DNA of 64,000 nucleotides from an uncultured bacterium (lineage in GTDB: Bacteria; Patescibacteriota; Microgenomatia; UBA1400; PJMF01): NCBI GenBank assembly GCA_963544615.1, contig CAUUGB010000001.1, forward strand, positions 10,388 through 74,387. Direction: 5' to 3'. Shown here piece by piece: positions 16,907-50,588 of this stretch. Within the stretch, counting starts at the first letter, position 1. Each line of letters starts with the position of its first letter. Made by a program: the position numbers and the translations under genes. A model generated the notes under the pieces. It was not told the DNA's origin. It worked only from the letters and a program-made list of their open reading frames with translations, and made no database searches.

Positions 16907-18634
16907 TTATTTTTTATGCTCCACATTAAAATGAGCAAAAGAGTTTTGGGGAATGCGCAAATACCCGGGAGCGCGCAAATTAAAAATTTGCTTAAATTCA
17001 CTCCCACTTAAAACTATTTCCCCCCGATTGGTTTGAAATTTAACTTGAGCAGTTTGCCCTTTGTCAGTATGACTGGTGATAACTTCGCTAATGCTTTCTA
17101 CCGCGCCTCCAGAATGGTTAGCTTTTTCTTTTAATTCTGGCATGGAGTAAGGGTTGCCGCTATTGCCACCCACGCGGCATTTATTAATCGTGATGGGAAT
17201 AATGCGCTCTACTTGGGCGTCTTGAGGGTTGCGGCGGACAATCCAAGCATTGAGTAAATCGGCCATTTCTTCTTGCGAGAGCCAAGGATGATCGCGACCG
17301 CAAGCATCACCACTGGCAGTGTAACCCAAGCGATACCAAGCTTTATAAAACCAGGGTGAGCTAGCTTTAGCTTCCCAGGCTCTATCAGTCCAGCTGCCAC
17401 TGCCATTTTTGTCAGTGGTGTCCCAGCCGCTAGTATTGCTGTAACCGCCGTGGGTAGAAGCATATTGGGTGGAAACTGGTTTATCGCTGTCATCCACCAA
17501 CACCCAGCCGCGGGTTTCAGTGACCGCTTTTTCCCAATCACCGCCCTTTTTACCATTTTTGTAAACTTGGCAAGCCTCACTGGTACAAATAGATTTTTCC
17601 CCATTGTTGGTGTAGCGAATGGCATAAGTGCGGGCGGCAATGGCTTGAGCTTTCAGCACTTCTAAAGGCCAAGAAGCAGGGACTTCGTAAATGCTTTGTA
17701 AATAAGTATCCTCAAAAGACATTTTGCCATGACCTTGGACATTAATTTCTCCCATCACTGGATAATCTTTTTTCAGTTTGGCTTGAGGATAATAGGCTTT
17801 AAGAATTTCTTCGGCACTCTGCCCTGCTTGTGCTCTGGCTTTGGCGCCATATTGACTCATACCATTGCGGTGAGTATAGCCGCCAAAAGAAAACACGGCA
17901 AAAGAATTACTGGGAGCATTAGCCTTCCAAGTAATCGAAGCTTTTGGGTCATCGGTGGTGGGTACTTCTCCCACACTGGTAATTGAACTGCCGGAGCGCT
18001 CATTAATAATGGCTTGTTGTTGTGCTGATAAAGCAGCAATCTGCCCACTTAAATCAGCTTGATATTTTTTGGCAGCGGCAATTTCTTTTTTGAAAAACTC
18101 TGCTTGCTTGGCTAATTGTTTTTCTAAGGCTGCTAGTTTTTGTTCGGTGATTTCCAAAGCCGCTTTATCATCGTTTAATTGTTTAATTTGGGCGACTAAA
18201 TTTTGAATTTGTTGCTGGCTTTGGCTTTGGGCCAGTTGATAATTGGCGGCAGCAATCACCCCATGATAGTTTTGCTGGGGAGCTAAAAGTAGTAGCAGTG
18301 GTGAGCTGGTGCGTGCTGCCTGATAAGATTTTACCACCACTTGATAGAGCAATTGGGTTTGCTCTGCTTGCTCACCCTCGCGCTGTTGGATATTGGCTGC
18401 CAACTCTGCCGCTTGAGCCTTAGCATTTTTAATGCCTACTTGAGCATTGGTAATTTTGCTGGCTAAACTGCGCACTTCTTTTTCTAAAGGTTTGGTGGCG
18501 TCCTGAGATTGTTGGCGCATTTTTTCTAGTTCATCAATTTGTTGTTGCAGCTGTTCCACCGGATCAATGGCAGCACTCAGGTGAGGACTAAAGCATAGCC
18601 AGCCAAAAGTCACTAGCAACAAAATAATTTTCAT
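16907..18634 (-). CDS. Secreted coiled-coil protein with a C-terminal SpoIID/LytB-type domain (peptidoglycan amidase enhancer / lytic transglycosylase family).
   Basis: Signal peptide, then about 200 aa of Gln/Ala/Lys-rich heptad-like coiled coil. The C-terminal domain carries GYTHRNGMSQYGA, AQAIAARTYAI and ICTSEACQVY motifs characteristic of SpoIID/LytB. Confidence 0.7.
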   Translation of the reverse strand: MKIILLLVTFGWLCFSPHLSAAIDPVEQLQQQIDELEKMRQQSQDATKPLEKEVRSLASKITNAQVGIKNAKAQAAELAANIQQREGEQAEQTQLLYQVVVKSYQAARTSSPLLLLLAPQQNYHGVIAAANYQLAQSQSQQQIQNLVAQIKQLNDDKAALEITEQKLAALEKQLAKQAEFFKKEIAAAKKYQADLSGQIAALSAQQQAIINERSGSSITSVGEVPTTDDPKASITWKANAPSNSFAVFSFGGYTHRNGMSQYGAKARAQAGQSAEEILKAYYPQAKLKKDYPVMGEINVQGHGKMSFEDTYLQSIYEVPASWPLEVLKAQAIAARTYAIRYTNNGEKSICTSEACQVYKNGKKGGDWEKAVTETRGWVLVDDSDKPVSTQYASTHGGYSNTSGWDTTDKNGSGSWTDRAWEAKASSPWFYKAWYRLGYTASGDACGRDHPWLSQEEMADLLNAWIVRRNPQDAQVERIIPITINKCRVGGNSGNPYSMPELKEKANHSGGAVESISEVITSHTDKGQTAQVKFQTNRGEIVLSGSEFKQIFNLRAPGYLRIPQNSFAHFNVEHKK

Positions 18635-18695
18635 GCCTTTAGTTTAACATAATCGTCTGGAAAAGAAAAAATTGCCTTAATTTAGAGTAAGCGAT

Positions 18696-18722
18696 AAAAA
18701 AGCCCCCGGCAAAGCCGGGGGC
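18696..18722 (-). terminator. Rho-independent terminator of the high-GC gene
   Basis: On the minus strand this reads GCCCCCGGC-UUU-GCCGGGGGC followed by U6. It lies 23 nt downstream of the stop at 18745. Confidence 0.7.
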
Positions 18723-18744
18723 GAGTTGACAAACTACTTTGGGG

Positions 18745-19659
18745 TTAGCTTTGAGCTAGCACCCCAGTTGCTACAATTCCTACCACCTCCTCCTTGGTGA
18801 GCGCTGAGCTTCTGCCTTGGGGGGAGCCAATGATATTCATCTGCCCACCCCAGGTGAGTCCGTCGTCACAACGCGCCGTTTCCAGCGCGTTGAGCTCGTC
18901 CCTAATTGTTGTCAAATTAATAGGGACAAACTCATTATAGCGGCATACCGTAAACTTCCGGTACGTCCCTTTGCTGGGGTCACGAAAGTCCACCAGCATG
19001 TGGGGGTTATACGCCACCACAATTTGCGCTTTTTGATAGCCAATCTCGGTGGCATACCGGTGAGTGGATTCCACCACCGCTACCTTGCCACCAGCTACCA
19101 TTTCCACAGCACTGCACTGCAGTGCCTTGGCAAATTCCTCTTCGCGCTCACGATTGAGTGCGACGACTTCTTCGCTGTGGGACGCGCTGTCCCCAGCAAG
19201 CAGGTCGGCCACCCAGGCCACCCGCTCCTTGAGCGGAATTTTTGCCATGGCCGCTTTTCTGGCAATGGCAATGGTGAGAGGACGCAGGTCCTCAAAACCT
19301 GTAGCCAAGGGACCGCGCTTGTCCACGGCGGCAATTGCCGCCACCAAGCGCTCATCGCAGCGCCGGTTAGCGCCGCGATTAGCCAATACTGCCATTGCCC
19401 CCACACTGTCAGCGTCGGGGCGCACAGTGGCAATCACTGCCCCATCAACAGGCAGCTCACAAGTGAGCGCCTGCTCTATGGCCGCCGGAGTGGCCATAGT
19501 TGCTCCCTGACCATGATGGTCGAGGTTGGCTACTCCAGCGGGGAGCAGTCGGGGCACCGTTACCTCTATCCCGAGGTTAAACTCGGGATTGCTTGCCCCT
19601 GGACGGGGGTCAAGCTGGACGAAGGAAAACCTGCGGGCGCTGACTGTGCTGGTGTTCAT
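18745..19659 (-). CDS. Hypothetical protein encoded in a high-GC island, of likely foreign origin.
   Basis: The 304-aa ORF has clearly protein-like composition (Ala/Arg/Val/Glu-rich). Its local GC is far above the flanking sequence. The opposite-strand ORF 18817-19857 is His/Cys/Arg/Gly-rich nonsense. DHH-like and PDAD-like tripeptides are present but in non-canonical order, so no family is assigned. Confidence 0.55.
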   Translation of the reverse strand: MNTSTVSARRFSFVQLDPRPGASNPEFNLGIEVTVPRLLPAGVANLDHHGQGATMATPAAIEQALTCELPVDGAVIATVRPDADSVGAMAVLANRGANRRCDERLVAAIAAVDKRGPLATGFEDLRPLTIAIARKAAMAKIPLKERVAWVADLLAGDSASHSEEVVALNREREEEFAKALQCSAVEMVAGGKVAVVESTHRYATEIGYQKAQIVVAYNPHMLVDFRDPSKGTYRKFTVCRYNEFVPINLTTIRDELNALETARCDDGLTWGGQMNIIGSPQGRSSALTKEEVVGIVATGVLAQS

Positions 19660-20027
19660 GATTGCCTCCTTGGGGGATTACCCCATATCACCAGAGTCTT
19701 TTGCTCTGGATGTAGGTTGGCGACTTTTGCGCCGACCCTTTTGGGGGCAGAATTTACCGCCAAAAGGCACGGCACAAAAGTAATCAGTAGTGAACTTAGT
19801 AGTGTTTGTCAAAGAACGTTTTTTGCCGGCAGTAGCTGTGCCCAGCACAGTTGCTAGCTAAAACAGCCTCATATTATATCATATAGGATAATATAGTCAA
19901 GTGGTAAATTGTGAATACCTAGTTATCAGGAAACGCTAGCTTTATGGTATTATTAATGATACATTAAAGGTGATGCCATGGGTAAATAAAGCGCAACATA
20001 TCAAGCAAATATTAAGAAAGGATGGTC

Positions 20028-20342
20028 ATGACTGAAAAAATTACTACAAGACAATTTGATATGGCTAACTATTTGCACAGTGAAGAAGATATCGCGGCTT
20101 ATCTTAAATTTGCTTTTGAATCTGGTGATAATAAAAAAATTAGTCACGCTCTAGCAACTGCGCTCAAAGCTAAAGGGATGTTAGCCACTGCCAAAAAAAC
20201 TAGTCTTAATCGCTCCAGTCTTTATAAAACTCTAATTAGCCATGAGGGTATGCCTAATATAGTTACTGTTAATAAGTTAGTACGTTCCTTTGGCTGTTAT
20301 TTGTCAGTGGTTACCGCCAGACAAAGGCAGCTGAGTGAGTAA
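20028..20342 (+). CDS. Addiction-module antidote protein (HigA/CC2985-like HTH antitoxin), apparently without a partner toxin.
   Basis: The roughly 105-aa protein matches the pattern of the 'probable addiction module antidote' family: ...IAAYLxxAFE.GD...ALxxxAKAKGMxxxAKxTxLxRxSLYKxLSxxGNPxxxTVxKVLxALG. The RBS AAGGA lies upstream. There is no RelE/ParE-like ORF in the 370 nt upstream. Confidence 0.65.
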   Translation: MTEKITTRQFDMANYLHSEEDIAAYLKFAFESGDNKKISHALATALKAKGMLATAKKTSLNRSSLYKTLISHEGMPNIVTVNKLVRSFGCYLSVVTARQRQLSE

Positions 20343-20464
20343 TTTCTTTTTTATCTAGCAATTAAATTGGGTGAATAAAAAACGACTAGTGATTGTTGTT
20401 GTTTGCTTTGTCTAAATCTCTCTTGTTTTCTAGCGGATAAAATCACTCTCACCAAGATTACCAA

Positions 20465-20926
20465 TTAGCTTTTTAATAGAGCCTTAATCCTTTCTCTTAA
20501 TCTCTTGGTCATTTCTTTTAGTTCTTTTGGTTTTGCCAAAGTCTGTTGATTACATCTGATTTCCTTGCTAATATACCAGATTGGTTTATTGGGACAAGGA
20601 TCATCAATGTAGCGAGGATAAAGGTGCCAATGCAAGTGGGCATCCTTATTTCCTAGACATTCATAATTTAGTTTTATTGGCTGAAAACATTCCATAACTG
20701 CCTGAGCAACCAAAGACATTTCCATTAAAAACTTTTGCCGAAAGTTGGGTTCAAGATGATGAAGTTCACTAACATGTCTTTTACAAAGAAATAAACTGTA
20801 TCCTTTATAATACTGATAGTCACCAATAACCACATAACCAGTTGCTAATTCTGTGACAAAATACGGATTTACCCCATTCTTAATTTGGGTAATTCTCCTA
20901 CAGATAAAACAATCTTGACTTTTCAT
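20465..20926 (-). CDS. HIT-family (histidine triad) nucleotide hydrolase/transferase
   Basis: HLHWHLYP His-x-His-x-His-xx triad motif. There is an N-terminal Cys pair (CFICRR). The length is 153 aa. Confidence 0.75.
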   Translation of the reverse strand: MKSQDCFICRRITQIKNGVNPYFVTELATGYVVIGDYQYYKGYSLFLCKRHVSELHHLEPNFRQKFLMEMSLVAQAVMECFQPIKLNYECLGNKDAHLHWHLYPRYIDDPCPNKPIWYISKEIRCNQQTLAKPKELKEMTKRLRERIKALLKS

Positions 20927-21009
20927 TTCAGATTTTTTTCAACTACTTTACCACTTTCATCAGAAAAATAAGCGATTAGAAAGAAGATGGTGATACGCGC
21001 CTGAAACAA

Positions 21010-21085
21010 GGTGCACTCGGCGGGAATTGAACCCACAACCTACGGCTCCGCAAGCCGGCGCTCTATCCAATTGAGCTACGAGTGC
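21010..21085 (-). tRNA. tRNA-Arg (anticodon read as GCG). The 3' CC is encoded; the terminal A is not.
   Basis: Manual cloverleaf. Acceptor stem GCACTCG/CGAGTGC (7 bp). D-stem GCTC/GAGC. Anticodon stem CCGGC/GCCGT with loop TTGCGGA (U33, G37). Variable loop AGGTT. T-stem GTGGG/CCCGC with T-loop TTCAATT. Discriminator A. It resembles bacterial tRNA-Arg overall. Confidence 0.8.
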
Positions 21086-21354: not shown

Positions 21355-22824
21355 ATGAAAAAATTTGCCCTGGCTTTAGTGAGTGTATTGTGGTTGGCAG
21401 GAGTGAGTGCGGCAGCAGTGCCGGAATGGCATTTGCTCAATGCAGTGGCGACTCAAATGGATGTCACTGTTGACGGACAGCATTATCACACAGAGGTTGC
21501 TGATTCCGAGGTGGCGCTGGTAAATGACTTGATGGTGCAAGTGAGTGATTTTTTACACACTCACACTGCTGGTAGGGTGAAGTTTAGTTTTACTAACTGC
21601 AACACTAGTGAGCCCATTACCAGCCTGTCTGAAGTAGATTACGGGAATTTTGATGTACTCCCACATCCCGCTGATAAGAATTATTATCCTAAAATTAAGA
21701 ACTTACCTGAGGTTATTCGGCGGCAAATGGTTAGCCACGATGTCATGATAGCAACAGTCAGAATGCCGGAAAAGCTGGCGAGTAATTGGCGAGGGTTGGG
21801 ATCTACGGGATATGCAGTCATTAGACTGTTTGATTTTTCGCAGTATCAAAGTGTTGGTTTTGAGCAACTTCATCTGCAATTTTATTTACACGAACTCATG
21901 CATGGTTTTTTGAACTATTTTGCCACGATTGGGTATCAAATTCCCAATATTCATCGTCCCGCTGATTATGGTTATGCCAGTGAGATGGAACTATTTGCTG
22001 CCATTCTCTCTGGGGAAATGCGTGATCCGGCGACAGGGCACAATTTGGGGATTACTGCAGCCATGTGGGCTAAATCTCCTTTATCTCAAATAATTGTGCC
22101 ACCCACTATCGAGTTGGATCTCTCTGATTTACATTTAGTGGAGGGCAAACTAGTATTGCAAGTGGGACAAGAAGTGCATGCTCAGTTGAAAGCTGTAGTT
22201 AGTCCCGACAATGCTGGTTTAGAGGTGACCTATTTTGATGATCACCAATTGCCCCCCGGTCTGACTTTGAGTGAGCAGGGGCTGTTATCAGGCAGACCCA
22301 CTACAGTGGGTAGGCGTTATGTGAGCGTTACTGCCCAAGCTGGCAATGCAATTGATAGTGCCAGTTTTATTATTGAGGTGCTGCCAGCAACGCCTCATCC
22401 TACCCCCACTCCCACTCCTAGCTTAAAGTTGGATGTGGCTGCTTTAGGGGTAGTCAATGGTCAGCTCACGCTGCAGCCAGGACAGAGAGTGCAAGCACAA
22501 GTGCGTACCAATGCCCCTGCTAGCACGGCGGTTACTTTTACCAGTAGCGGCTGGCCCACGGGATTGGCTTTAAGCTCCACTGGCTGGTTGACTGGCTCTA
22601 GCAGGGCGGTAGGGCAGTGGCCAGTTACCATTATTGCCAGAGCTGCAGGGCAACAAGATACCGCCAGCTTCCAGCTGGTGATTGCAGCAAACAATTCTCC
22701 GGCATTGCCTGACCCTCAGTTGCCTGGTACTGGCGGTGATGAGGGTGGCGGTGGTTGTCAGGTGGCAGGCTTAACTTATTTGCTGCTGCCATTGTGGTGG
22801 TTGAGGCGGCAAAAAAAGTGTTAA
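21355..22824 (+). CDS. Cell-wall-anchored (LPGTG) zinc-metalloprotease-like protein with two Ig-like (He_PIG-type) repeats.
   Basis: Signal peptide. HELMHGF (HExxH) motif. Two roughly 95-aa repeats (PPGLTLSEQGLLSGRPTTVGRRYVSVTA... / PTGLALSSTGWLTGSSRAVGQWPVTI...) resembling putative Ig domains. C-terminal LPGTG + hydrophobic span + RRQKK sorting signal. Confidence 0.7.
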   Translation: MKKFALALVSVLWLAGVSAAAVPEWHLLNAVATQMDVTVDGQHYHTEVADSEVALVNDLMVQVSDFLHTHTAGRVKFSFTNCNTSEPITSLSEVDYGNFDVLPHPADKNYYPKIKNLPEVIRRQMVSHDVMIATVRMPEKLASNWRGLGSTGYAVIRLFDFSQYQSVGFEQLHLQFYLHELMHGFLNYFATIGYQIPNIHRPADYGYASEMELFAAILSGEMRDPATGHNLGITAAMWAKSPLSQIIVPPTIELDLSDLHLVEGKLVLQVGQEVHAQLKAVVSPDNAGLEVTYFDDHQLPPGLTLSEQGLLSGRPTTVGRRYVSVTAQAGNAIDSASFIIEVLPATPHPTPTPTPSLKLDVAALGVVNGQLTLQPGQRVQAQVRTNAPASTAVTFTSSGWPTGLALSSTGWLTGSSRAVGQWPVTIIARAAGQQDTASFQLVIAANNSPALPDPQLPGTGGDEGGGGCQVAGLTYLLLPLWWLRRQKKC

Positions 22825-23044: not shown

Positions 23045-24493
23045 ATGGCAAGCATGTCTCAAGTACCAATTAAGTCACAGCTGTCAGCTTTTTGGCAGCG
23101 GTTAACCGCCAGTCCGCAAAAACAACGCCGACTATTGGGGGCGGGGTTGCTGCTGGTTTTTTTTGTTTTGGGTTTTTGGGCTTGGTGGTTATGGCGTCAT
23201 CCCGCGAGTGTTTACACCAAACCTCCCAAAAAAGTTGCTACCGAGCGTTTGGCGCAAGTTTTACCTGCTCCCAGTCCGGTGCCAGCCGATAATCAGGCGC
23301 TGCAAGCTGCCGCTTTAATTTTGGCGCATTTTAATCCTCAAGCTGGCAACCCAGGAGTGGTAGACCAGCGTGGTTTTTATGGTGATGAGCGCTATTGCCA
23401 TAATCAGTTTAGTCGCCAAGGTCAACCGGTTTGTAAAGCGGTGTTACATGACATCATGGGTGATTACGAGAGTATGGCCAGTTTTCGCTCTACAGTGCAA
23501 CTGCTTTGGGCACGCTACCGTTATTATTTAGCCAGCAATAATCGCCAGCAGTTGACTCAGCTTCTTTTAGATGTGGATAATTTAGTGAGTAATGTGCTCG
23601 ACTCACCCTCTTATGTACTACAAAATCAAGACTTTAATTGTTTGTTGATGAGAGAGCTATATTTTTCTCCGGTTTTAGATGCTGAAACTAAAGAAAAAGC
23701 TCGCCGTCTTTGCCAAGAATCTCACCCCGAAATGCATCCGGAAAGTTTGTGGGAATATGACCAATATCATCATCCACTTTACTATATTGACGATTTTCTC
23801 CAAGTGGCTATGGTTGACTCCACTCGTCATATTCCAGATTCAGAGAGGGTTACTTACCGTGCTGCCAGTTTGCAGCAAGAGCTTAATCAGGATTTGCTAC
23901 TAATTGCTAACGGGGGAGTGCTACCAGCCACCACTTATGCTCGGATTAGCAGTGAAGATAAATTAATGTTTTTACGCCTAGAAGCTAATGCGGCGCTTGA
24001 TTATTTAGCCCAGAGCGAAATTAATCAAGCTGACGAGTTGCGCTATGAGCAAAGTATGGTGGAGTATTTGCTCACCAGCAAAGAAACACTCAATTGGTTG
24101 CTGACTACCCCCAATGCTTGGTATAGTGATGGCGCTTGTTTGGTGGGAGTGAATATTCGCGCTTACTTAGAGCGCTTTGCTCCTAATTTGCTTAGTGAAA
24201 CTCAATTAGCCGTGCTGCGGAGTAAATTGCCTTTTGTTGATGAAGCCAGCGAGCTGGATTGTGTTTTAGCTGGGAGCATTCTTTTCCCCCAAGATCCTAA
24301 TGTTACCTATCAATTGCACAAGCGTCTTAAATCACTCGCCGCCAGTTATCAGCCAGGTTTACCTTTAGGAGATTTTTTACATCAAAGTGCTGGTGATAAA
24401 CAGCCCAGTTATTATTACCCCACGGTACGTAATGCTTATTACGCCGGTTTATTAAGTGAATATGCCCAACAACAAAATTATGCCCAAAAATAA
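23045..24493 (+). CDS. Membrane-anchored hypothetical protein (N-terminal TM helix, large extracytoplasmic alpha-helical domain).
   Basis: TM helix LLGAGLLLVFFVLGFWAWWLW. It overlaps the start of the giant Cys-rich protein gene, suggesting co-transcription. Confidence 0.5.
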   Translation: MASMSQVPIKSQLSAFWQRLTASPQKQRRLLGAGLLLVFFVLGFWAWWLWRHPASVYTKPPKKVATERLAQVLPAPSPVPADNQALQAAALILAHFNPQAGNPGVVDQRGFYGDERYCHNQFSRQGQPVCKAVLHDIMGDYESMASFRSTVQLLWARYRYYLASNNRQQLTQLLLDVDNLVSNVLDSPSYVLQNQDFNCLLMRELYFSPVLDAETKEKARRLCQESHPEMHPESLWEYDQYHHPLYYIDDFLQVAMVDSTRHIPDSERVTYRAASLQQELNQDLLLIANGGVLPATTYARISSEDKLMFLRLEANAALDYLAQSEINQADELRYEQSMVEYLLTSKETLNWLLTTPNAWYSDGACLVGVNIRAYLERFAPNLLSETQLAVLRSKLPFVDEASELDCVLAGSILFPQDPNVTYQLHKRLKSLAASYQPGLPLGDFLHQSAGDKQPSYYYPTVRNAYYAGLLSEYAQQQNYAQK

Positions 24494-27400
24494 ATTCTTC
24501 TTCACAGTTTTATTAACTCTTACTTTAATTTTGGGGGGAATGGTACTAACTGTTAAGGCTCAACCAACTCCTACCCCTACTGACAAAACTCCATTGCAAA
24601 TTATCAGCAGTGAACAATTTCTCCGACGATTAGAAGAAAATTTGCCAAAAGATACTAAACCGGTTTATGTTTTTTCTGGTGCATATCAGCGGTTGTTTTA
24701 TCGACCCGCAAATAAAAATTGGAGTGGTAACTTGCTGACTATTCCCACTGATGTCCCGGCTCCTTATAAAGGTGGTCAAGATGTGCGTTCAGGAGTAATT
24801 TTGCCTTTAATTCAAAATTTAATCGACAATATTGACCCTGCCACTGATATTGGTGCTAATACTAATGTGTCTTTGCCGGCCTCAGTCACTATCCCTATTA
24901 TTAAAGGTTTAAAAAATGTGTGCGACCAGCAATGCGATGACAGTCGCTATAATAGCAATTTCCAGCTTTGTTTTCTACCTCGATGCACTGGTGGTGGTAA
25001 AGATGAGCCTCCTAAAAAATGTACTTGTGCCAGTAATTTAAGATGGAAAAAAGCTACCGATGTTTGTTACAATCAAACCATGCCCGGTGGCACTGATGGC
25101 TTGTGTGTTTTTAAAGATGAGGAATTAAAAGAGCGCTGTCGTGAATATGAATGTAGTGTTACCGAAGAATGCCCTACTGATGAAAATGGCAATAAAATTG
25201 TGGGTGATGATTGTGATCTCATGCCATATAATAAGAATTTTTCTAGTGAATCATTTAATGAAAATAATGCTTTTATGAATAAATATCGGTCATATAGCTG
25301 GATTAAAGATGCCTATGAGAATTGCTATACAGACAATTTTGTTCCTAGTAATTATCAGCCTACCTGGTGTGATGATAGTGTGTCTGTTTCAGATCCACCC
25401 GAGAATGGAGCTACTGATCCACCTGAAAATAGTGATGATTACAAAAAAGATTTTGCTTGCAATAACGATGATCGGCGTATGATGTGTGTTCATGATAATA
25501 AGGCGATGCCAGCTTTAACTAAAGCGACAGTTGATTGTTTGGCTGCTTTGAAAACCATGTTTTATGATATTGGTTCGCTTGGTGATTTATATAAAGCAAT
25601 TCTTGACATTATGAATGAAATGCTTGATGAATTAGAAAACTATATTTTACCGCCGGTGGTGATTGGTGGCGGGTATAAATGGAGCAAAACTCCAGAAGAA
25701 ACTAACATAATTGATGAGCCGGGCTTTTGTTTGAATAAGAATGTGAGTACTTGTTCTTGTGGACATATTTTACCTTTTAATGGTAGCACCATTACCAATT
25801 TGGGTTTGCGCCGTAAACTTTTGTCTTATGGAGTGGCGGATGCGAATAAATACTGTGTTAATACCGAAGGCGACCCGGCTTGTACCTATAGTTATAGTTG
25901 GGATACCGAAGAGGTGGAGGATAAACCGGTCAGCCGTAATACCAAAGTAGGGATGAGAAACATTTATGCCAGTCGGGCTTCTTATCCGGGTTGGGTAACT
26001 CATAAGGGTGGCTATGTGCATGGAGCCACTTGTGCTAAAAGACCCAAGGGCTCTTCGATTGGTGGTAGTGAATCCGGGAGTAAAACTCGCACTTTTGAGG
26101 TAACTGATAAAGAATTTTTCTTTTTACAAGCGCGCTATTTTGCCGATAAAATTGCCAGAGGAGAGAGCGACGAGCTCTCTTATGGTGGTTGTGATGATCG
26201 CTCTAATATTTTATACAATCATGCCACCGCCGCTCATTGCCAGCGCAAGGGTAAGCGAGGTATTAAATGTCGTTCGGGGTCTCGGCGGCGCTTTAGTAGT
26301 TATGCTTGCGATATTAATGGGGGAGTAATTAATCAGTGCAAAAATGGCAGAGTGGATGGCGGGCGTAACACTATTTGTCAGGTTTGTGGGCCTATTTATT
26401 GTGGTGAGCATGGTCTTTATTCCGATACCAATACAGTGCGCAAAAATTTTAAACTTGGTAATAGTCCTACCAGGCATTATAAATTTTATCGTTATTATCA
26501 TCCTCAGGGTTCCACCAAATATGGTGGTGGTGATGAGGGTGGTGGGGGTACCATAGATGGCTCGGAGATTTTTTACAGCTATAGCAGTCAAATTTGTTTG
26601 GGGGAGCGCTGTAATAGTAGCTACAATGACGCTGTTTTTACTCCACGTGATTTACCAGCTAATTCTGGTCAGGTTTTTGATGACCGCACTTGTCCCGAAG
26701 GAGAGATTGTTGACCCTTGCAAGCAGAGAGCCATTGCTAATAATTGGGGTGGGCACCGGCTGTGTTATGAGAGCTGTTGTGTGAGTAGTGATGGCAGCAA
26801 ATGTGATCGTTTTCCCCATGATTGCCCTCCGGGTGAGTGTTGTGAAGATGACGATAATAGTTGTCGTCAGCCAGCTGATAATTATCATTATGGTGGCGAC
26901 TTATGTTCTATTGGGGATGACACGAGTAAAACAGTTTCCGGAGTAGCAATTCCGGCTGCAGATGCCGAAAAATATGCTAACTACCAGTGTAATGTGGCAG
27001 GTACTTATGACACTCATTATCCAAAAAGCGTGGCTGAAAGTTATACATTCCCACTAAAGGAAAAAAGTGCTTGCTATTTTTGTGGTTGCGCTCCCATAGA
27101 GGGTAATAGCGGCAAAAGCGGTTGGTGGCCCCGTAATGCCAAAATTAAACATGGTGACCAGTGTTTAACTCCTGAACAGAAATGTGCTGCTGAATTTAAT
27201 CAAGTAAAAAATAACAAGCTAGAAATTGGCTATGATGGTTTAGCCCAAGCTATGGATAGGTCTGATGTTGATAGTCCTGTAACTTTGTTAAAAGGCATTA
27301 CTGGTATGACTAATTTAAGATGTGTGCGGTGCCGCTGTGTTGCCGGAGATGGTATTTGTGATGGGTATTCTGGTGATCCTAACGGGGTTTGTAAGAATTA

Positions 27401-30026
27401 TCCTCAGGGGACACTCGATCCAGATTGTGATCCTTTACTTCCATCACCAGGCCCTGAGTCTTGTGGTCCAAGTAATTGCAAAACACCTGGTGCTTGCTCT
27501 TGTAAAGTAAAACCTGGTTATAACTTAACTGAGTATCCTTATGGTGATGATTATGGTAATCATCCTCAGTGTCGTATTTGCATTTACAAATCCAAACCAA
27601 CTGGTTGTGGTGATGGTATTTGCAGTGGTTTGGAAACTTGTGAAAATTGTTCCCAAGATTGTGGTAAGTGTCCGCAGATGAGTGAGTGTCCCGATGGTTA
27701 TAGTAAGCTGTGCACTGGGGAGGGGTATCCTGTTACTGGTCTTGGAGATTGTAAACGCTGCTATGACCCTAATCACCTTGAGCAGCCTCAACATGGTTGT
27801 CAGGACGATGGTTATTGTAATCCTCTCTGCGAAGAAAAAGATGCGGATTGTGAGCCCGAGACAGCTAAGTATTTAACTAATGACAATGGTTGTCCTTACG
27901 GTTATGGCAAAACAAAAGAGTGTGGTTATGGTGAACGTCATCCTCTTTTAAGTGGCTGCTATGCTTGTGGTTGCGAGAGGCGTAAAAAGAACTTTATAGA
28001 AACCAAAATTGATAATCCACAGCTTTGTGATAAAGATGACAATCATGAGGAGGATAACTGTGACATTCATATGAAAGAATTTAGTTGCAGTCCATATGAC
28101 AATCAAAATAATTCTGGTTTACATTGGAAAGTGGTTACCTTAGCGCAGCAGCAGCAAATTTATCGCGATTCCCTCTGTTATGGCTATCAATTTTTTACCA
28201 CTAAAGAAGATAGCAGTGTGGTTACAGTAGGTGTTGATGTCTCTTACTATGATTATCAACAACGTGACGCTTGGATGCTTGATAGTGACGGTAAAGGTTT
28301 TATTTATTCTGACGCTAAAGGTGGTTATCGGCGCTGTCGCCCCGTGCGTATGCCTTATCGCGGTGGTAGCCTTAGCAGTGGCAAAGCTGGTCTGTGCGAA
28401 TATCGCTGTATTCCCGCCATGCATCAAGCCATTGTTTTAAGCTGTAGCGAAATTGATGCTCGTTATCCTCATGAGTACCGGGGTAATCCCAGTGATGAGA
28501 TGGTTTTTATTCCCGATGTTGCCCGCTCGGCTGGTAATAAAGAAGTTTACCTTGGTGGCACTAGTGAGGGCTTGAGTGTGGTGCCGCGTAGTAATGACGC
28601 ACGCTGTGGTCGCTATTATCGCGTCTACCCCAAACATATCGATAAGTCTGAGACTAATGATATTAACGGTGATGGCAAGGTTGACTGGCAAGATGGTAAC
28701 GCTGCCGCCTCTTATTTATTTACTGATTGGTGGCAAGTGGGTGGTAATGCTTACGGTAACGCTGGTGTGAGCAATTACGGCGAAAAAACGGCTTTTGTGG
28801 CAGAGCCGGCAGAAGTAAAAAATCTCAATCCCGCTACTGCCAAACTAGTAGGGAAAATGAAATCTTATCAGTATGCACTAAATGATGGGAGCTGTATTAC
28901 CAGTGGTGGGGAAATTAAGACCGGTGATTGGCAGCCGCCAACTGCTTATAAGCCTTCATCAGGCGCTGGTTTGCAGGTAACAGGTAGTGGCAATCCCACC
29001 ACCCTCATTAATAAACGCACTTATCGTCCATCTAATCAAACTGGCTTGGCGGCTAAAGGTGGTTACCAGTTTAGCTATCAAAAGCAGCGTGCTTTAGACT
29101 TTGAGTATTACCGTACTCTACTTGATTATGAAAAAATACCTAAGAATGGTAGTAGTAGAGTTCAAGTGAAATTAGCCGATGGTAATATAGAGGAAACTTT
29201 TGTCTACCGTTTTTTTGGCAGAAATGTTAAATTCAATGATGATATTAAGCCCATTGTAGATAGTATTGGTGTAGATAAAAAAGTAGTTATCTTTGTAGAA
29301 AGTCAGGGTGCTGAAACAAGTAATGTCGGCGGTAACTTTATTCTCGATGCTAATATGGCAAGTTATGATCCCAATGGTTATTTAGCAGTGATTGCTCAAA
29401 AAGACTTTATTATTGAGCCTCAAGTTGGTTATCATTTAAATACCCAAAATGGCCAAGGTTGTGGTATTAATACTGTCACATTATGCACTCCCTCATTTAA
29501 TGGGGTAGTTATTGCGCGAGGTTTAGTGATGAAGCGCGAGGGTGACGGCAGCGATCCCAGCAGTAACCCTACGTTGGTGGATGGTCTTTTTAATCCCCAG
29601 CTTACTTGTGATAAACGCTTAGTGCTTAAAGGCGCTTATGCTTTTTGGGGCAAGCAACCGGTGGTCTTTACCCGGACTCTTTTGGGCTGTGGTTTGAAAA
29701 AAGGTCCTTTCTCCAATGACAAGGCGAGCTTAAATGTTCACAATGCTCGAGGTAATGCTCATGGAGATGACTTTGAGGGCAGGCGACCAGATGTAAAGCT
29801 TAATAACAAGAATGCCTATGATGATTATTGTCGCACTGGCACAGTTAGGCGCAATGGTAATGGCTACTATAACTATCACTTGAATTGGCCAGATAGTCAG
29901 GGTGGGATGTACAATAACTACAATCGCTTGATTTCTGCTACTCAGTTGGTGGTTAATCAACAGTTAATTAATTTAACTCCTGCTTGGATGAGACAAAACC
30001 TCACCACTCGTTTGGAGGTGCGCTAA
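24480..30026 (+). CDS. Giant secreted cysteine-rich protein (about 1850 aa), a putative surface/adhesion protein.
   Basis: Signal peptide MPKNKFFFTVLLTLTLILGGMVLTVKA. Alternative starts are GTG 24456 and ATG 24462. The N-terminal roughly 1150 aa are extremely Cys-rich with CGDGIC...E.C..C..DCG-type modules and Gly/Asp/Tyr-rich spacers. A dockerin/EF-hand-like loop DINGDGKVDWQD is present. The C-terminal roughly 650 aa are Cys-poor and Gly/Asn/Tyr-rich. Confidence 0.7.
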   Translation: MPKNKFFFTVLLTLTLILGGMVLTVKAQPTPTPTDKTPLQIISSEQFLRRLEENLPKDTKPVYVFSGAYQRLFYRPANKNWSGNLLTIPTDVPAPYKGGQDVRSGVILPLIQNLIDNIDPATDIGANTNVSLPASVTIPIIKGLKNVCDQQCDDSRYNSNFQLCFLPRCTGGGKDEPPKKCTCASNLRWKKATDVCYNQTMPGGTDGLCVFKDEELKERCREYECSVTEECPTDENGNKIVGDDCDLMPYNKNFSSESFNENNAFMNKYRSYSWIKDAYENCYTDNFVPSNYQPTWCDDSVSVSDPPENGATDPPENSDDYKKDFACNNDDRRMMCVHDNKAMPALTKATVDCLAALKTMFYDIGSLGDLYKAILDIMNEMLDELENYILPPVVIGGGYKWSKTPEETNIIDEPGFCLNKNVSTCSCGHILPFNGSTITNLGLRRKLLSYGVADANKYCVNTEGDPACTYSYSWDTEEVEDKPVSRNTKVGMRNIYASRASYPGWVTHKGGYVHGATCAKRPKGSSIGGSESGSKTRTFEVTDKEFFFLQARYFADKIARGESDELSYGGCDDRSNILYNHATAAHCQRKGKRGIKCRSGSRRRFSSYACDINGGVINQCKNGRVDGGRNTICQVCGPIYCGEHGLYSDTNTVRKNFKLGNSPTRHYKFYRYYHPQGSTKYGGGDEGGGGTIDGSEIFYSYSSQICLGERCNSSYNDAVFTPRDLPANSGQVFDDRTCPEGEIVDPCKQRAIANNWGGHRLCYESCCVSSDGSKCDRFPHDCPPGECCEDDDNSCRQPADNYHYGGDLCSIGDDTSKTVSGVAIPAADAEKYANYQCNVAGTYDTHYPKSVAESYTFPLKEKSACYFCGCAPIEGNSGKSGWWPRNAKIKHGDQCLTPEQKCAAEFNQVKNNKLEIGYDGLAQAMDRSDVDSPVTLLKGITGMTNLRCVRCRCVAGDGICDGYSGDPNGVCKNYPQGTLDPDCDPLLPSPGPESCGPSNCKTPGACSCKVKPGYNLTEYPYGDDYGNHPQCRICIYKSKPTGCGDGICSGLETCENCSQDCGKCPQMSECPDGYSKLCTGEGYPVTGLGDCKRCYDPNHLEQPQHGCQDDGYCNPLCEEKDADCEPETAKYLTNDNGCPYGYGKTKECGYGERHPLLSGCYACGCERRKKNFIETKIDNPQLCDKDDNHEEDNCDIHMKEFSCSPYDNQNNSGLHWKVVTLAQQQQIYRDSLCYGYQFFTTKEDSSVVTVGVDVSYYDYQQRDAWMLDSDGKGFIYSDAKGGYRRCRPVRMPYRGGSLSSGKAGLCEYRCIPAMHQAIVLSCSEIDARYPHEYRGNPSDEMVFIPDVARSAGNKEVYLGGTSEGLSVVPRSNDARCGRYYRVYPKHIDKSETNDINGDGKVDWQDGNAAASYLFTDWWQVGGNAYGNAGVSNYGEKTAFVAEPAEVKNLNPATAKLVGKMKSYQYALNDGSCITSGGEIKTGDWQPPTAYKPSSGAGLQVTGSGNPTTLINKRTYRPSNQTGLAAKGGYQFSYQKQRALDFEYYRTLLDYEKIPKNGSSRVQVKLADGNIEETFVYRFFGRNVKFNDDIKPIVDSIGVDKKVVIFVESQGAETSNVGGNFILDANMASYDPNGYLAVIAQKDFIIEPQVGYHLNTQNGQGCGINTVTLCTPSFNGVVIARGLVMKREGDGSDPSSNPTLVDGLFNPQLTCDKRLVLKGAYAFWGKQPVVFTRTLLGCGLKKGPFSNDKASLNVHNARGNAHGDDFEGRRPDVKLNNKNAYDDYCRTGTVRRNGNGYYNYHLNWPDSQGGMYNNYNRLISATQLVVNQQLINLTPAWMRQNLTTRLEVR

Positions 30027-30044
30027 ATTAAATTACCACTCATC

Positions 30045-31754
30045 TTGAGGCTTATGTCTATTAATGGTCGCTATCAGCAATTTTATTCGCCAAAGATGAA
30101 GCGCCTGGTCTTTCCTCAAGGCAATCTTTATGATTTATTGCAGCAAGCTAATCAGGGGAAAGAGAATGAGTATGCACTTGATTATTTTGGTCAGCGCCTA
30201 ACATATGGTTGGCTTTTTAGTGAAATTGAGCGCTGCACTAGTGCACTTTTAGCACTGGGAATTAAGCAAGGTGAGGTAGTGACTGTTTGCTCACTTTTAA
30301 CGCCGGAAACCCTGGCAGTTTTTTATGCGCTCAATCGCTTAGGTGCAATTAGCGATTGGCTCGATCCGCGCTCTAGCGAGCCAAAAATTATTAAAACCCT
30401 CAAACAAACTAAAAGTAAATTATTAATTATCCTCTCACCATTGGCAAAAGTTTTTGCTAAGGCTTTGTCTAAAAGCAGTTGTCGAGTGGTAATTTTATTA
30501 AATCCTCTCACTCAAGCTGGTCTGCCAAGCAAAGTTTTGGGTACCCTTAAAGGTTTATTTACTCCAGCACCAGCTTTTCCCTCCAAAATTCGCTTACTCA
30601 CTTATAAGCAATTGCTTTTATTAGCCCATAAGCAGCCTGCCCCCAATATTCGTCCACGCCTTCATCAGGGGGCGGCTATTGTACATACTGGTGGCACCAC
30701 TGGGCAGCCTAAAGCAGTTTTGCTCACTAATGAGAGTATTAATGCCGAGGTTACCCAAGTGGCTAATTTTCATTTGCGGTTTAAGCGCCAAGAGCGCTGG
30801 CTCTCTTATTTACCGCCTTTTGTGGTGGTTGGTTTAGTAAATGTGATTCACTTACCCTTAATCTTAGGGATGGAGCTTTGTTTAGTGCCCAACTTTCTTA
30901 CCATGACTTTAGCTCAACAGCTTAAAACTTATCGGCCACATCATATTCCCTGCATTTCGCTGCATTGGCGCGAAATTATCAGCGGTAAAAAGTTGCAAAA
31001 TTTTTCTCTTGATTTTGTTAAAAGTATTATTGTAGGAGGGGACGTTTTTTACCGGGGTATGGAAGAGCGCCTGATTGATTTTTTGCGCGCCCATAATTGC
31101 CATATTGCCCCCACCAAATGTTATGGCTCGAGTGAAAGCTCTTCAGTGGCAGTCGCCGGCTGTAATCATCAACCTTATAATAAATTAGGTAGTGTAGGTA
31201 TTCCTTTACCAGGTAATCAGGTTGCCATTTATGAGGTAGAGAAAAAGCAACTGACTGGTCGAGCTGGAGTGATTGGGGAAATTTGTTTAGCCGGACCGGT
31301 TTTAATGAAAGGCTATTATGCCGATGAAACCGCTAGTAAAAAAAGTCTGCGCACTCATGCGGGTAAGCTGTGGTTGCATACCGGAGACTTAGGTTATTTA
31401 GATGATGATGGAGTATTATTTTTAGCGGGACGCAGTAAGCGGATGATTATTAGACGGGGCTTTAAAATTTATTCTTTAATGATTGAACAATTACTTAATC
31501 AGCAAGAGGAGGTTAAAATTGCTGTGGTGGTCGGTAAACCAGATAAAGCTGATGATGAAGTGCCTTGTGCCCATTTAGTACTGCAAGAAGATTACAGTCA
31601 CCGCCCGGCTGAGGTGGAAAAGAAGCTACGCTTGCTTTGCCAACAGCATTTAAGTGATTATCAAGTGCCGGTGCAATGGTATTTTCACCAGTCTTTACCA
31701 CTAACTGCCAATGGTAAAATAGATTATCGTTTTTTAGAAAACTATCATGAATAA
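30045..31754 (+). CDS. Adenylate-forming enzyme (AMP-dependent synthetase/ligase, acyl-CoA/acyl-AMP ligase family).
   Basis: AMP-binding motif I HTGGTTGQPKAV. Core motifs YGSSESS and HTGDLGYLDDDGVLFLAGRSKRMI. No carrier-protein gene is adjacent. Confidence 0.8.
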   Translation: MRLMSINGRYQQFYSPKMKRLVFPQGNLYDLLQQANQGKENEYALDYFGQRLTYGWLFSEIERCTSALLALGIKQGEVVTVCSLLTPETLAVFYALNRLGAISDWLDPRSSEPKIIKTLKQTKSKLLIILSPLAKVFAKALSKSSCRVVILLNPLTQAGLPSKVLGTLKGLFTPAPAFPSKIRLLTYKQLLLLAHKQPAPNIRPRLHQGAAIVHTGGTTGQPKAVLLTNESINAEVTQVANFHLRFKRQERWLSYLPPFVVVGLVNVIHLPLILGMELCLVPNFLTMTLAQQLKTYRPHHIPCISLHWREIISGKKLQNFSLDFVKSIIVGGDVFYRGMEERLIDFLRAHNCHIAPTKCYGSSESSSVAVAGCNHQPYNKLGSVGIPLPGNQVAIYEVEKKQLTGRAGVIGEICLAGPVLMKGYYADETASKKSLRTHAGKLWLHTGDLGYLDDDGVLFLAGRSKRMIIRRGFKIYSLMIEQLLNQQEEVKIAVVVGKPDKADDEVPCAHLVLQEDYSHRPAEVEKKLRLLCQQHLSDYQVPVQWYFHQSLPLTANGKIDYRFLENYHE

Positions 31755-47131: not shown

Positions 47132-47737
47132 ATGTTTAATGCTCATAATTCTGCCGATAGTCAGCAAGCTGCCAGTGATGAGGTAGCCAATGAATTTGAC
47201 CAGCTGGCGGCACAAATGCCTTTAGCTGACTACGAAGACGTGCCTCCCATGGCAGAAGAAGCGCTTTATACTTGGGTCGCCCCAGAGCGAATTTTTCGCC
47301 CTCGCTTGTCAATGGATTTTAAGCGTAATTTAATTTTGCTTTTAGCCTTGATTGTGTTGTTGTTAATTTTTTTAAGCAATCTCTCTCTTTTGATTGTGGT
47401 GTTGTCGCTGATTTTTTTTATGTTTGTGGTAATGAATGTGCCTCCCTTAAAAATTCGCCACACCTTAACCAATTACGGTATTTATGTGGGTGATCACAAA
47501 TTTTATTCATGGAAAGATCGGGGCGCACGCTTTTGGTGGGAGCAAAGTCATGGACAAAATTATGTGGTGGTAGAAACCCGGGTGTTTCCTTATAAGATTG
47601 TGATGCTGGAGGGTTTAGAGGGTAATAAGCAAATTATTAGCAACATTTTAGGCGCTTATTTACTGGAGCAAAAACCACCGCAAACTGAGGCTGATAAATT
47701 GATTAAGTGGCTTCGCGAAACTTTTCCTTTGGAGTAG
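47132..47737 (+). CDS. Hypothetical membrane protein
   Basis: 201 aa. Acidic N-terminus, two adjacent TM helices, and a C-terminal soluble domain. Confidence 0.45.
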   Translation: MFNAHNSADSQQAASDEVANEFDQLAAQMPLADYEDVPPMAEEALYTWVAPERIFRPRLSMDFKRNLILLLALIVLLLIFLSNLSLLIVVLSLIFFMFVVMNVPPLKIRHTLTNYGIYVGDHKFYSWKDRGARFWWEQSHGQNYVVVETRVFPYKIVMLEGLEGNKQIISNILGAYLLEQKPPQTEADKLIKWLRETFPLE

Positions 47738-50276: not shown

Positions 50277-50588
50277 GTGAAGCTAATGACAAGCACTCCA
50301 GCGGCGCCGGTTAATTCCGTCGAGCGATATCAAGGTCTTTATTTCTTGTATCGTCTGGGGAAATTGGGCGGATTGGGGTTTTGTGGCCGAGTGGCCAGCA
50401 ACCTCGTGAAGTTGGTTTGCTGTGAGCCAGATGTCTTCTGGGAGGAGACTGATTATGCCTTAATGGAGAACATTTGGCAGCAGGTGAACCATCGATTGCG
50501 GGTGTGGGGTCAGCCCCCCATTGACCCGATAGACCGCGATGATTTGGTGCGCTGCTGTACCCAGCTGATGAGAATTTATTTTAATTAG
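50277..50588 (+). CDS. Hypothetical small protein (103 aa) with locally elevated GC.
   Basis: It has a strong SD and promoter. It is Cys-containing (CC, CC pairs) and ends at a strong terminator. Confidence 0.4.
   Translation: MKLMTSTPAAPVNSVERYQGLYFLYRLGKLGGLGFCGRVASNLVKLVCCEPDVFWEETDYALMENIWQQVNHRLRVWGQPPIDPIDRDDLVRCCTQLMRIYFN

Follow-up and report, generated by a model that had tools for sequence, protein, structure and literature searches.

Katz and Burge reportedly dealt in 2003 with secondary structure of messenger RNA (mRNA) that is selected in coding sequences. Genome-wide selection for unusually high mRNA structure in coding sequences (CDSs) has been described as statistically widespread (Gebert et al. 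2019, PMC6544989), and a hypervariable gene of a Gracilibacterium, a member of the candidate phyla radiation (CPR), shows synonymous hypervariation together with predicted RNA stems (Sieber et al. 2019, PMC6851277). Here, we describe a gene for a 304-aa protein, which forms a GC-rich island at 18640-19860 on a 64,000-nucleotide stretch of DNA, hereafter called the window, from an uncultured bacterium (assembly GCA_963544615.1, contig CAUUGB010000001.1, positions 10,388 to 74,387). An original prediction, made from the DNA letters, had seen in this island the signature of horizontal acquisition, possibly from a high-GC actinobacterial host, and had guessed that the genome belonged to the CPR. 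The latter guess agrees with our finding that the named homologues of the gene and of the RNase Y encoded in the window are in Patescibacteria. As to the cause of the high GC content, we prefer a different explanation, to which we assign a probability of roughly 58%, namely that selection for a densely base-paired sense transcript keeps a resident gene GC-rich. The gene is a long-term resident and not a recent import, and in this explanation a high-GC donor is not the source of its GC-richness.

GC excess and predicted structure of the message

The GC-rich island is real. The GC content, calculated per 300 nt, rises from 0.44 to 0.54-0.62 over approximately 18650-19850, and then falls to 0.32-0.41 on the right side. 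The CDS has a GC content of 0.580, as compared with the mean of 0.424 for the whole window, and no other 915-nt stretch of the window deviates as strongly (z = 5.75 relative to the remaining stretches of this length, the maximum of which was 0.515). The GC contents at the first, second and third codon positions (GC1, GC2 and GC3) are 0.65, 0.47 and 0.62, respectively, the GC3 of the window being about 0.37. GC3 is mostly 0.30-0.45 in the other 59 long open reading frames (ORFs), among which only a 103-aa ORF at 50277-50588 exceeds 0.5 (0.61). The 304-aa product contains 14.5% Ala, 9.9% Val and 7.2% Arg.

Two ORFs run across the island, one of 304 aa on the minus strand and one of 346 aa on the plus strand. 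The minus-strand frame has homologues and is under purifying selection (dN/dS of 0.11-0.14 between alleles), so that the predicted gene, its coordinates and its coding strand were correct. The stop-free run of the plus-strand ORF shrinks to 180, 197 and 65 codons in the related loci L001, L064 and L003, respectively, in keeping with its earlier dismissal as antisense noise. An overlapping antisense gene was rejected as the source of the high GC content, since the plus-strand ORF is broken in relatives and the synonymous sites evolve fast. Translational selection for GC-ending codons was also rejected, as the bias is seen in no other gene of the window.

All RNA structures reported here are thermodynamic predictions. 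The minimum free energy (MFE) of the CDS is -456 kcal/mol, as compared with -360 ± 10 kcal/mol in dinucleotide shuffles (z = -9.7), while an equal length of the adjacent SpoIID-domain gene gives z = -0.9. When synonymous codons were shuffled with both the protein and the codon usage kept, z-scores of -6.8 to -9.9 were obtained for four alleles of the gene and for L003, the orthologue in a different species, as compared with about -1 in the controls. The island CDS is thus the strongest structure outlier among the 60 ORFs of the window. The predicted fold is a chain of local hairpins with stems of 6-13 bp, in which 69% of the nucleotides are paired at a median pair span of 22 nt.

The GC excess is a property of the whole gene family. 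The gene is richer in GC than its surroundings in 38 of the 40 family loci with enough flank (mean +0.094), the gene-minus-flank difference in GC3 reaching +0.43 (flank GC3 being derived from crude ORF calls), and the GC profiles show a spike confined to this single gene across many lineages. In 46 family members, the GC excess over the host correlated with the structure z-score (Spearman rho -0.51, p = 2.6e-4), and the median z was -6.4 in members forming GC islands, as compared with -1.2 in those forming none (p = 1.4e-4). The CDS of L031 consists of near-perfect hairpins tiled end to end (z = -17). Three members from mid- or high-GC hosts (L029, L014 and L032) are equally structured without forming an island, as expected if structure is selected and GC is its cost in AT-rich genomes.

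To these data, a comparison of seven alleles, that is, the window copy and those of six further strains (L001, L002 and L064-L067), adds signs of selection on pairing. In the consensus structure of their alignment, 94.6% of the cells are able to pair, and 34 pairs have changed on both sides, as compared with 16.6 ± 2.8 in shuffles (reached in 0 of 500) and 2-9 in slid controls. In one case, a change of GCG to GAG (Ala to Glu) is offset by a synonymous change of GCG to GCU on the opposite arm. Among polarised synonymous singletons, we counted 13 changes from A or T to G or C (weak to strong, W->S) per 31 sites and 33 in the opposite direction (S->W) per 83 sites, the polarisation being by parsimony on seven saturating alleles, with small counts and many sites excluded as multiply hit. 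The implied equilibrium GC3 is about 0.51, as compared with 0.22-0.28 in the flanking SpoIID and HisK genes (binomial p = 0.0013). Since the GC excess tracks both the excess of predicted pairing and the W->S bias, it looks maintained rather than a decaying relic. The GC3 of unpaired third positions is close to the genome background in three copies, namely the window allele, L001 and L003 (0.40-0.42), but 0.53-0.56 in L002 and L064.

Two features differ between the strands. Counting uninterrupted stems of 8 bp or more in which one or two G.U pairs are required, we found 119 on the sense strand, where 30 are expected, and 50 on the antisense strand, where 23 are expected (p = 1.4e-4). GNRA tetraloops, most commonly GAAA, make up 27 of 294 tetraloops on the sense strand (9.2%), as compared with 9 of 213 on the antisense strand (4.2%). 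We read this evidence as pointing to structure in the mRNA; a role of the non-template DNA strand would be a less likely reading.

Taken together, these data suggest a mechanism in which dense local pairing would be selected in the sense transcript, so that short GC-rich hairpins would line the mRNA from end to end. In a low-GC host, such a chain could be built only by raising GC at synonymous sites, and the GC excess would be a by-product. Individual hairpins would turn over through compensatory changes and recombination, while the overall structuredness would be retained. The hairpins would shield the mRNA from single-strand-specific RNases and make an unusually stable message. These RNases might be the RNase Y encoded in the window (57334-58920) or the DHH-type product of the gene itself, the DHH/DHHA1 fold being one that includes exonucleases for single-stranded RNA and DNA. 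A strong promoter, a long structured leader, a strong Shine-Dalgarno site and a strong terminator fit a message built for stability. A more specific version, in which the family encodes throughout the phylum a single-strand-specific DHH nuclease or phosphodiesterase that might digest nucleic acids for nucleotide salvage in auxotrophic symbionts, and in which its "armoured" mRNA is selected to be nearly fully paired so as to survive its own product, released close to it during translation, or other single-strand RNases such as RNase Y, is doubtful in our view. If true, synonymous sites that evolve fast, compensatory changes and a GC spike limited to one gene in low-GC hosts would all follow from the free turnover of hairpins.

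Several observations weigh against selection on the transcript. Two family members, L012 and L009, are GC islands with z-scores of only -2 and -1, respectively. The covariation test relied on a structure that came from the very seven-allele alignment under test. The contrast in GC3 between paired and unpaired third positions is largely reproduced by shuffles, reflecting a bias of the folding algorithm, and the z-scores are similar on the sense and antisense strands. G.U variants are in only modest excess over A.C variants among the alleles (1074 vs 895). The equilibrium GC3 of 0.51 lies below the current 0.62-0.70, and some decay may be under way. Moreover, individual pairs are poorly shared: 31% recur in L002, an allele of 82% identity, 7% in L003 and about 3% in distant members. 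One RNA fold conserved throughout the family was therefore rejected, as pair sharing drops to the control level beyond close alleles, and no single functional fold can be assigned. What is kept is structuredness, not a particular fold.

Some other parts of the window are also over-structured. The 103-aa ORF at 50277-50588 (plus strand; GC 0.51), whose GC3 is given above, ranks second among the structure outliers of the window (z = -5.2). Pfam gave no match to it, and the only matches in Rfam were sub-threshold ones on its terminator-like 3' end; the ORF may represent either a further hairpin-rich gene or a small structured RNA. The RNase Y gene (plus strand) is mildly over-structured (z = -3.0), and 30045-31754 and 58982-60241 have z-scores of about -4. 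The over-structure of these few genes, RNase Y included, is 3-5 times smaller than that of the island gene.

Residence, mobility and alternative origins

The gene adjoins the SpoIID-domain gene in the window, in all six further strains and in L003, and the SpoIID protein is 99% identical in amino acids between the strains. L003 belongs to a relative of a different species, in which the gene product is 61% identical, the neighbouring proteins are 48-81% identical and synonymous sites are saturated (pS, the proportion of synonymous differences, is 0.68-0.76 against the window). The host genomes of the seven alleles and L003 have a GC content of about 0.43, and the gene has 0.54-0.60 in all of them, with a GC3 of 0.62-0.70 among the seven alleles and 0.57-0.58 in L003. 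The gene has thus been at this locus since before the split from the different-species relative. According to the amelioration reasoning that is attributed to Lawrence and Ochman, a GC3 excess reportedly decays to about one-tenth after one synonymous substitution per site per lineage; we infer that this expected amelioration has not occurred in the island gene. The original prediction had itself held that orthologues with the same synteny in related low-GC genomes would refute a foreign origin, and these GC-rich orthologues (L001-L003 and L064-L067) are of this kind.

A similar picture was obtained in another clade of the family (L008, L010, L018, L020, L028-L031, L035, L036, L041 and L042), in which two neighbours recur within 4 kb of the gene, a TrmB-like helix-turn-helix regulator at 12 loci and, at 8 loci, a protein of about 800 aa that contains a GNAT domain. 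The GC spike is limited to the one gene in this clade too. The retention of these neighbours indicates that the gene is an old resident there as well, and the TrmB-like/GNAT association may represent a functional neighbourhood.

The search for homologues offered no high-GC donor. We found 304 homologues of the 304-aa protein in a word-indexed search and 1101 clusters at 50% identity in an exhaustive profile search, and the named ones are all "hypothetical protein" and all from Patescibacteria (Uhrbacteria, Paceibacterota, a "gcode 4" bacterium and others). In a scan with one genome per species, 54 family loci were detected, mostly in Patescibacteria (Paceibacterota, Saccharibacteria, Falkow-, Taylor-, Nomura-, Kaiser- and Woesebacteria), with a few metagenome-assembled genomes (MAGs) labelled otherwise; the taxon labels are MAG titles, some of which are probably wrong. 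Actinobacterial matches among the 54 loci were just two short fragments (L053 and L058), and the suggested actinobacterial donor therefore finds no backing. The family is unannotated, Patescibacteria-wide and nearly restricted to Patescibacteria.

Some of the loci call for comment in their own right. L019, labelled Flavobacteriaceae, and L020, labelled "bacterium", agree exactly in their match statistics and in the composition of the gene, so that a mis-binned contig is suspected, and several loci labelled Gammaproteobacteria or Burkholderiales may be mislabelled. The match regions of L019, L020, L038 and L056 in a tblastn search contain 1-3 in-frame stops, which could represent pseudogenes, frameshifts or an alternative genetic code. 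A paralogue within the window was considered and rejected, as the sole tblastn match (47187-47330) is out of frame with the local ORF and is lost in BLASTP.

The alleles at this locus are also highly diverged. Between strains, dS is 0.63-0.80 in the island gene, as compared with 0.01-0.17 in SpoIID, HisK and DnaG, and the drop in identity begins at the ATG and ends just past the stop codon. The seven alleles are 78-88% identical pairwise and mosaic, the nearest allele shifting along the gene, and in the four-gamete test, 57% of the informative site pairs fail. We rejected clock-like hypermutation of the CDS, since the two strains nearest to each other in the flanks, L001 and L002 (HisK dS 0.01), are the furthest apart in the gene (dS 0.80). 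This, together with the species-level dN of 0.34-0.37, which is inside the range of the neighbours (0.18-0.45), argues for an exchange of old alleles and not for a faster clock, and points to a hot spot of old, recombining alleles. The contigs of L064, L065 and L067 end 50-1700 nt upstream of the gene, as would be expected if the diversity of alleles between strains interrupts assembly at this locus.

The gene family also moves. One contig, L059 (1-11328), carries a 61%-identical copy between terminase, portal, capsid and other phage genes (SU10-type capsid and portal, small terminase), and in the gene tree, constructed by neighbour-joining only, single clades combine different taxon labels, the phage copy branching close to the window clade. 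With these observations and the recombining alleles, the horizontal component of the original prediction stands in part, as mobility of the family; import of a tRNA-linked island does not. It is conceivable, if unlikely, that a GC-rich mobile pool of phages or other CPR lineages keeps replacing the resident copy before it is ameliorated, with the hairpins being incidental or a property of the pool. Such recurrent import would account for the phage copy, the mixed labels, the mosaic alleles that differ by 12-22% in nucleotides between flanks 94-99% identical, and the frequent breaks of metagenome contigs at the locus. However, the seven alleles and the orthologue in L003 occupy one and the same locus in low-GC genomes, which means that the exchanging pool is itself low-GC-hosted. 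The phage copy is less GC-rich than the resident gene (GC 0.50, GC3 0.48) and of ordinary composition within its contig (0.49), though it is still over-structured (z of about -5.5 to -5.9), and the family is rare in viral collections, IMG/VR giving two weak matches and INPHARED none. We found no credible high-GC donor, actinobacterial or other, and the neighbourhood conserved at the 12 loci of the TrmB/GNAT clade argues for long vertical residence. Recurrent import would also leave unexplained the scaling of GC excess with excess pairing.

GC-biased gene conversion, in which heteroduplex repair at a recombination hot spot would raise GC in the polymorphic CDS only, is in our opinion improbable. 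The locus is indeed the most recombinant and polymorphic stretch of the region, its divergence is confined to the CDS, and its W->S rate is above that of the flanks. By contrast, other hypervariable genes nearby, such as that for an 1856-aa protein, are not enriched in GC. Gene conversion predicts enrichment irrespective of pairing, and not z-scores of -8 to -17, compensatory pairs or a G.U bias of the sense strand. Furthermore, the same single-gene spike occurs in other clades with a conserved neighbourhood, for which no hot spot has been shown.

We give equally little weight to the possibility that the hairpins act or arise in DNA, for example by protecting the transiently single-stranded non-template DNA of a highly transcribed gene, or through template-switch (quasi-palindrome) mutation. 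In its favour, the excess of structure is nearly as strong on the antisense strand, there are 26 perfect Watson-Crick stems of at least 8 bp where 3.2 are expected, and most stems are purely Watson-Crick. The non-template strand has the sequence of the mRNA, so that a G.T bias of the sense strand is compatible with this possibility. A study of E. coli (PMC1630709) reportedly proposed that intrastrand DNA structure is selected to counter transcriptional mutagenesis, which also counts in favour. On the other hand, the synonymous divergence of the gene is raised and not lowered, the G.U-containing sense stems and GNRA loops go beyond the expectation from composition, as would be expected for RNA, and a mutational mechanism would act genome-wide, although the island gene is the only strong outlier among the 60 ORFs.

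A recent single acquisition from a high-GC donor, for example an actinobacterial host, at the tRNA-Arg site is highly improbable, as the strong deviation at all codon positions, the Ala/Arg/Gly/Val-rich protein and the proximity of the tRNA, which speak for it, are opposed by the occupation of the same locus in all related low-GC genomes examined (including the species-level relative), by the lack of actinobacterial homologues beyond the two short fragments, of tRNA 3'-end repeats and of an integrase, and by a substitution pattern unlike simple decay.

Transcription unit, DHH-like product and neighbours

The predicted promoter and the Shine-Dalgarno sequence, listed with the other features in the table, make the island one self-contained transcription unit that consists of a promoter, a leader of approximately 205 nt, a Shine-Dalgarno site, the 304-aa ORF and a terminator.

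Features of the island and its surroundings (positions in the window)
Feature	Position	Strand	Basis or remark
SpoIID-domain protein; downstream neighbour and synteny anchor, outside the island	16907..18634	-	Pfam SpoIID
Intrinsic terminator, GCCCCCGGC-UUU-GCCGGGGGC followed by U6	18696..18722	-	Terminator scan
CDS, 304 aa, unannotated DHH/DHHA1-fold phosphoesterase-like protein; GC-rich, hairpin-packed (predicted), strain-hypervariable	18745..19659	-	
Structured 5' leader, about 205 nt, with hairpins reaching the Shine-Dalgarno site	19660..19866	-	Folding prediction
Shine-Dalgarno AAGGAGG	19665..19671	-	Read from sequence; 5 nt before the ATG at 19659-19657
Predicted sigma-70-like promoter, TTGACT, 16-nt spacer with TG, TATAAT	19873..19900	-	11/12 consensus positions, extended -10
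HigA-like "dnstrm_HI1420" antidote	20022-20342	+	Pfam
HIT protein	20465-20926	-	Pfam
tRNA-Arg(GCG)	21010-21085	-	ARAGORN and Rfam; 1.15 kb from the island edge

The promoter is retained in L001 and L002; at the corresponding position, L003 carries a TTGACA-17-TATAAT of its own. The GGAGG core of the Shine-Dalgarno site is retained in six of the seven alleles, L064 having GGAGA. The terminator, a GC hairpin with a U6 tract that had been correctly recognised beforehand, has a 9-bp all-GC stem, a 3-nt loop and T6 (18722 to 18696 on the minus strand); its stem is invariant in all seven alleles, with AAA as the loop in L001.

The leader has an MFE of -80 kcal/mol (z = -5.0 against dinucleotide shuffles), and a GGGG-UAAU-CCCC hairpin abuts the Shine-Dalgarno site. 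Its 3' 140 nt are conserved with compensatory changes in L003 (9873-10006), the 61% orthologue, and in L060 (522-665), a 58% homologue in a different genomic context; an example is CCAGAG/CUCUGG as compared with CCAGGG/CCCUGG and with CGAG/CUCG. The leader could be a cis-regulatory element or merely the beginning of the hairpin tiling. As a family-wide element it was rejected, since the covariance model R1 built on it matches only the window, L001-L003 and L060. Among the Rfam covariance models, only tRNA passes the gathering score in the whole window. At E <= 5, sub-threshold matches in 18600-20050 fall on the terminator and once inside the CDS (Scr6925, 19323-19440, 23 bits as compared with a gathering score of 50), and none falls in the leader. 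A 5'-3' "panhandle", formed by UUGACAAAC at 19812-19804 with 18734-18726, was rejected (p of about 0.08, not recurrent at other loci).

The 304-aa protein has no match to a Pfam family at E <= 0.1 and none in NCBIfam, PHROG or PADLOC, and thus no defence-system (PADLOC) or phage-family (PHROG) annotation; it also stays below the gathering scores of Pfam DHH (PF01368) and DHHA1 (PF02272), and a sequence-profile search against PDB returned no DHH protein at E <= 10. The AlphaFold model of the protein has very high confidence (pLDDT, the predicted local distance difference test score, of 96.6) and shows the two-domain DHH + DHHA1 fold, the top Foldseek matches being RecJ2, NrN, Rv2837c, GdpP and NrnA. 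The family conserves D46-H47-H48, D81-x-D83, H199 and G270-G271, and the metal-binding motifs are present in the sequence: D81 and D83 are invariant and D46, H47 and H48 are at least 90% conserved among 64 sequences. In the DHH family, the canonical order of motifs is DxD (I), D (II), DHH (III) and D (IV). In the 304-aa protein, the DHH triad (46-48) lies about 35 residues ahead of the DxD (81-83), the reverse of this order, and for this reason we call the protein DHH-like by fold and motifs; as activity is not demonstrated, it is designated phosphoesterase-like only.

The neighbours of the island named in the original prediction, a cell-wall hydrolase gene, an orphan antitoxin and a tRNA-Arg, were confirmed as the SpoIID-domain gene, the HigA-like antidote and tRNA-Arg(GCG). 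The antidote and the HIT gene form a block of low GC content (0.34-0.37; 20022..20926) between the island and the tRNA-Arg, with no adjacent toxin partner. The block is absent in L003, which has a 315-aa GC-rich ORF instead, and the antidote gene is truncated in L064; it is this block that is the segment truly prone to insertion and deletion at the tRNA. The tRNA-Arg lies near the gene in all relatives examined (it is present in L001-L003). Direct repeats of its 3' end flanking the island, for which a search had been proposed, were not found: patterns of 20 nt and 13 nt match only the tRNA itself in the window with 2-3 mismatches allowed, and the repeat search gave no tRNA-derived family. A 15-nt imperfect repeat that brackets the region (18688-18702 and 20969-20983, 87%) is regarded as chance. 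No integrase or other mobility domain was detected among the three ORFs between the tRNA and SpoIID.

Further along the window, other genes also vary between strains or species in an unusual manner. The 489-aa protein at 21355-22824 (plus strand), the orthologues of which carry He_PIG, is 83-84% identical between strains, as compared with 97-99.7% in housekeeping neighbours, and the above-mentioned 1856-aa protein at 24456-30026 (plus strand; GC3 0.32) is 72-74% identical in amino acids; both are probably surface proteins under diversification. The AMP-binding enzyme encoded at 30045-31754 (plus strand) is 95.7% identical in amino acids between the window and L003 (1-1339), other shared neighbours being 48-81% identical, which suggests that this gene was exchanged recently between the two species.

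Comparison with known systems

The island gene is a counter-example for composition-based detection of horizontal gene transfer: an island of +0.16 in GC and +0.25 in GC3, with a terminator of its own and near a tRNA, is an old resident whose composition goes with RNA pairing, and base composition alone would misclassify the gene as foreign. Selection on CDS structure is seldom considered at this strength and phylogenetic breadth, with messages predicted to be tiled by hairpins in dozens of lineages and the hairpins themselves unconserved. The question of why some mRNAs need double-strandedness becomes directly testable by synonymous recoding. The data also flag an uncharacterised DHH-like family of approximately 1100 clusters at 50% identity, strain-hypervariable and occasionally phage-borne, as a candidate for a role in the nucleotide scavenging or the phage/host conflict of these symbionts. 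Literature searches aimed at this question gave no report of a family whose mRNA hairpin load makes a phylum-wide single-gene GC island, although such an absence is weak evidence.

In comparison with the DHH/DHHA1 phosphoesterases (NrnA, PggH, GdpP, the TM1595 phosphodiesterase, RecJ/RecJ2 and NrN), the 304-aa protein has the same DHH, DxD and the Gly-Gly motif of the C-terminal domain, but it is only 8-17% identical to them, lacks a Pfam DHH/DHHA1 match and carries its DHH ahead of the DxD. Viral DHH phosphohydrolases match it at a level similar to that of other DHH proteins. With tRNA-linked, horizontally acquired islands, the locus shares a short compositional anomaly near a tRNA and expression signals of its own; it differs from them in having no integrase, no 3'-end repeat and no donor lineage, and in a position that is conserved in relatives.

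The hypervariable Gracilibacterium gene (PMC6851277) is likewise a CPR gene with assembly breaks and nucleotide variation over a conserved protein, for which RNA structure has been considered as selected. That gene, however, is an array of 9-mer PTD repeats that encodes a predicted surface protein, whereas the island gene is a non-repetitive CDS for an enzyme fold, diverged and hairpin-rich over its full length, in which no signal peptide was noticed. As in the genome-wide phenomenon (PMC6544989), the synonymous arrangement of the island gene is predicted to fold far more stably than shuffles that preserve the protein and the codon usage. Here, the effect reaches an extreme degree in a single gene (z = -8 to -17; some 12 kcal/mol per 120 nt), is a phylum-wide trait of a family with turnover of its hairpins, and yields a single-gene GC island of +0.10 to +0.27 that mimics horizontal transfer.

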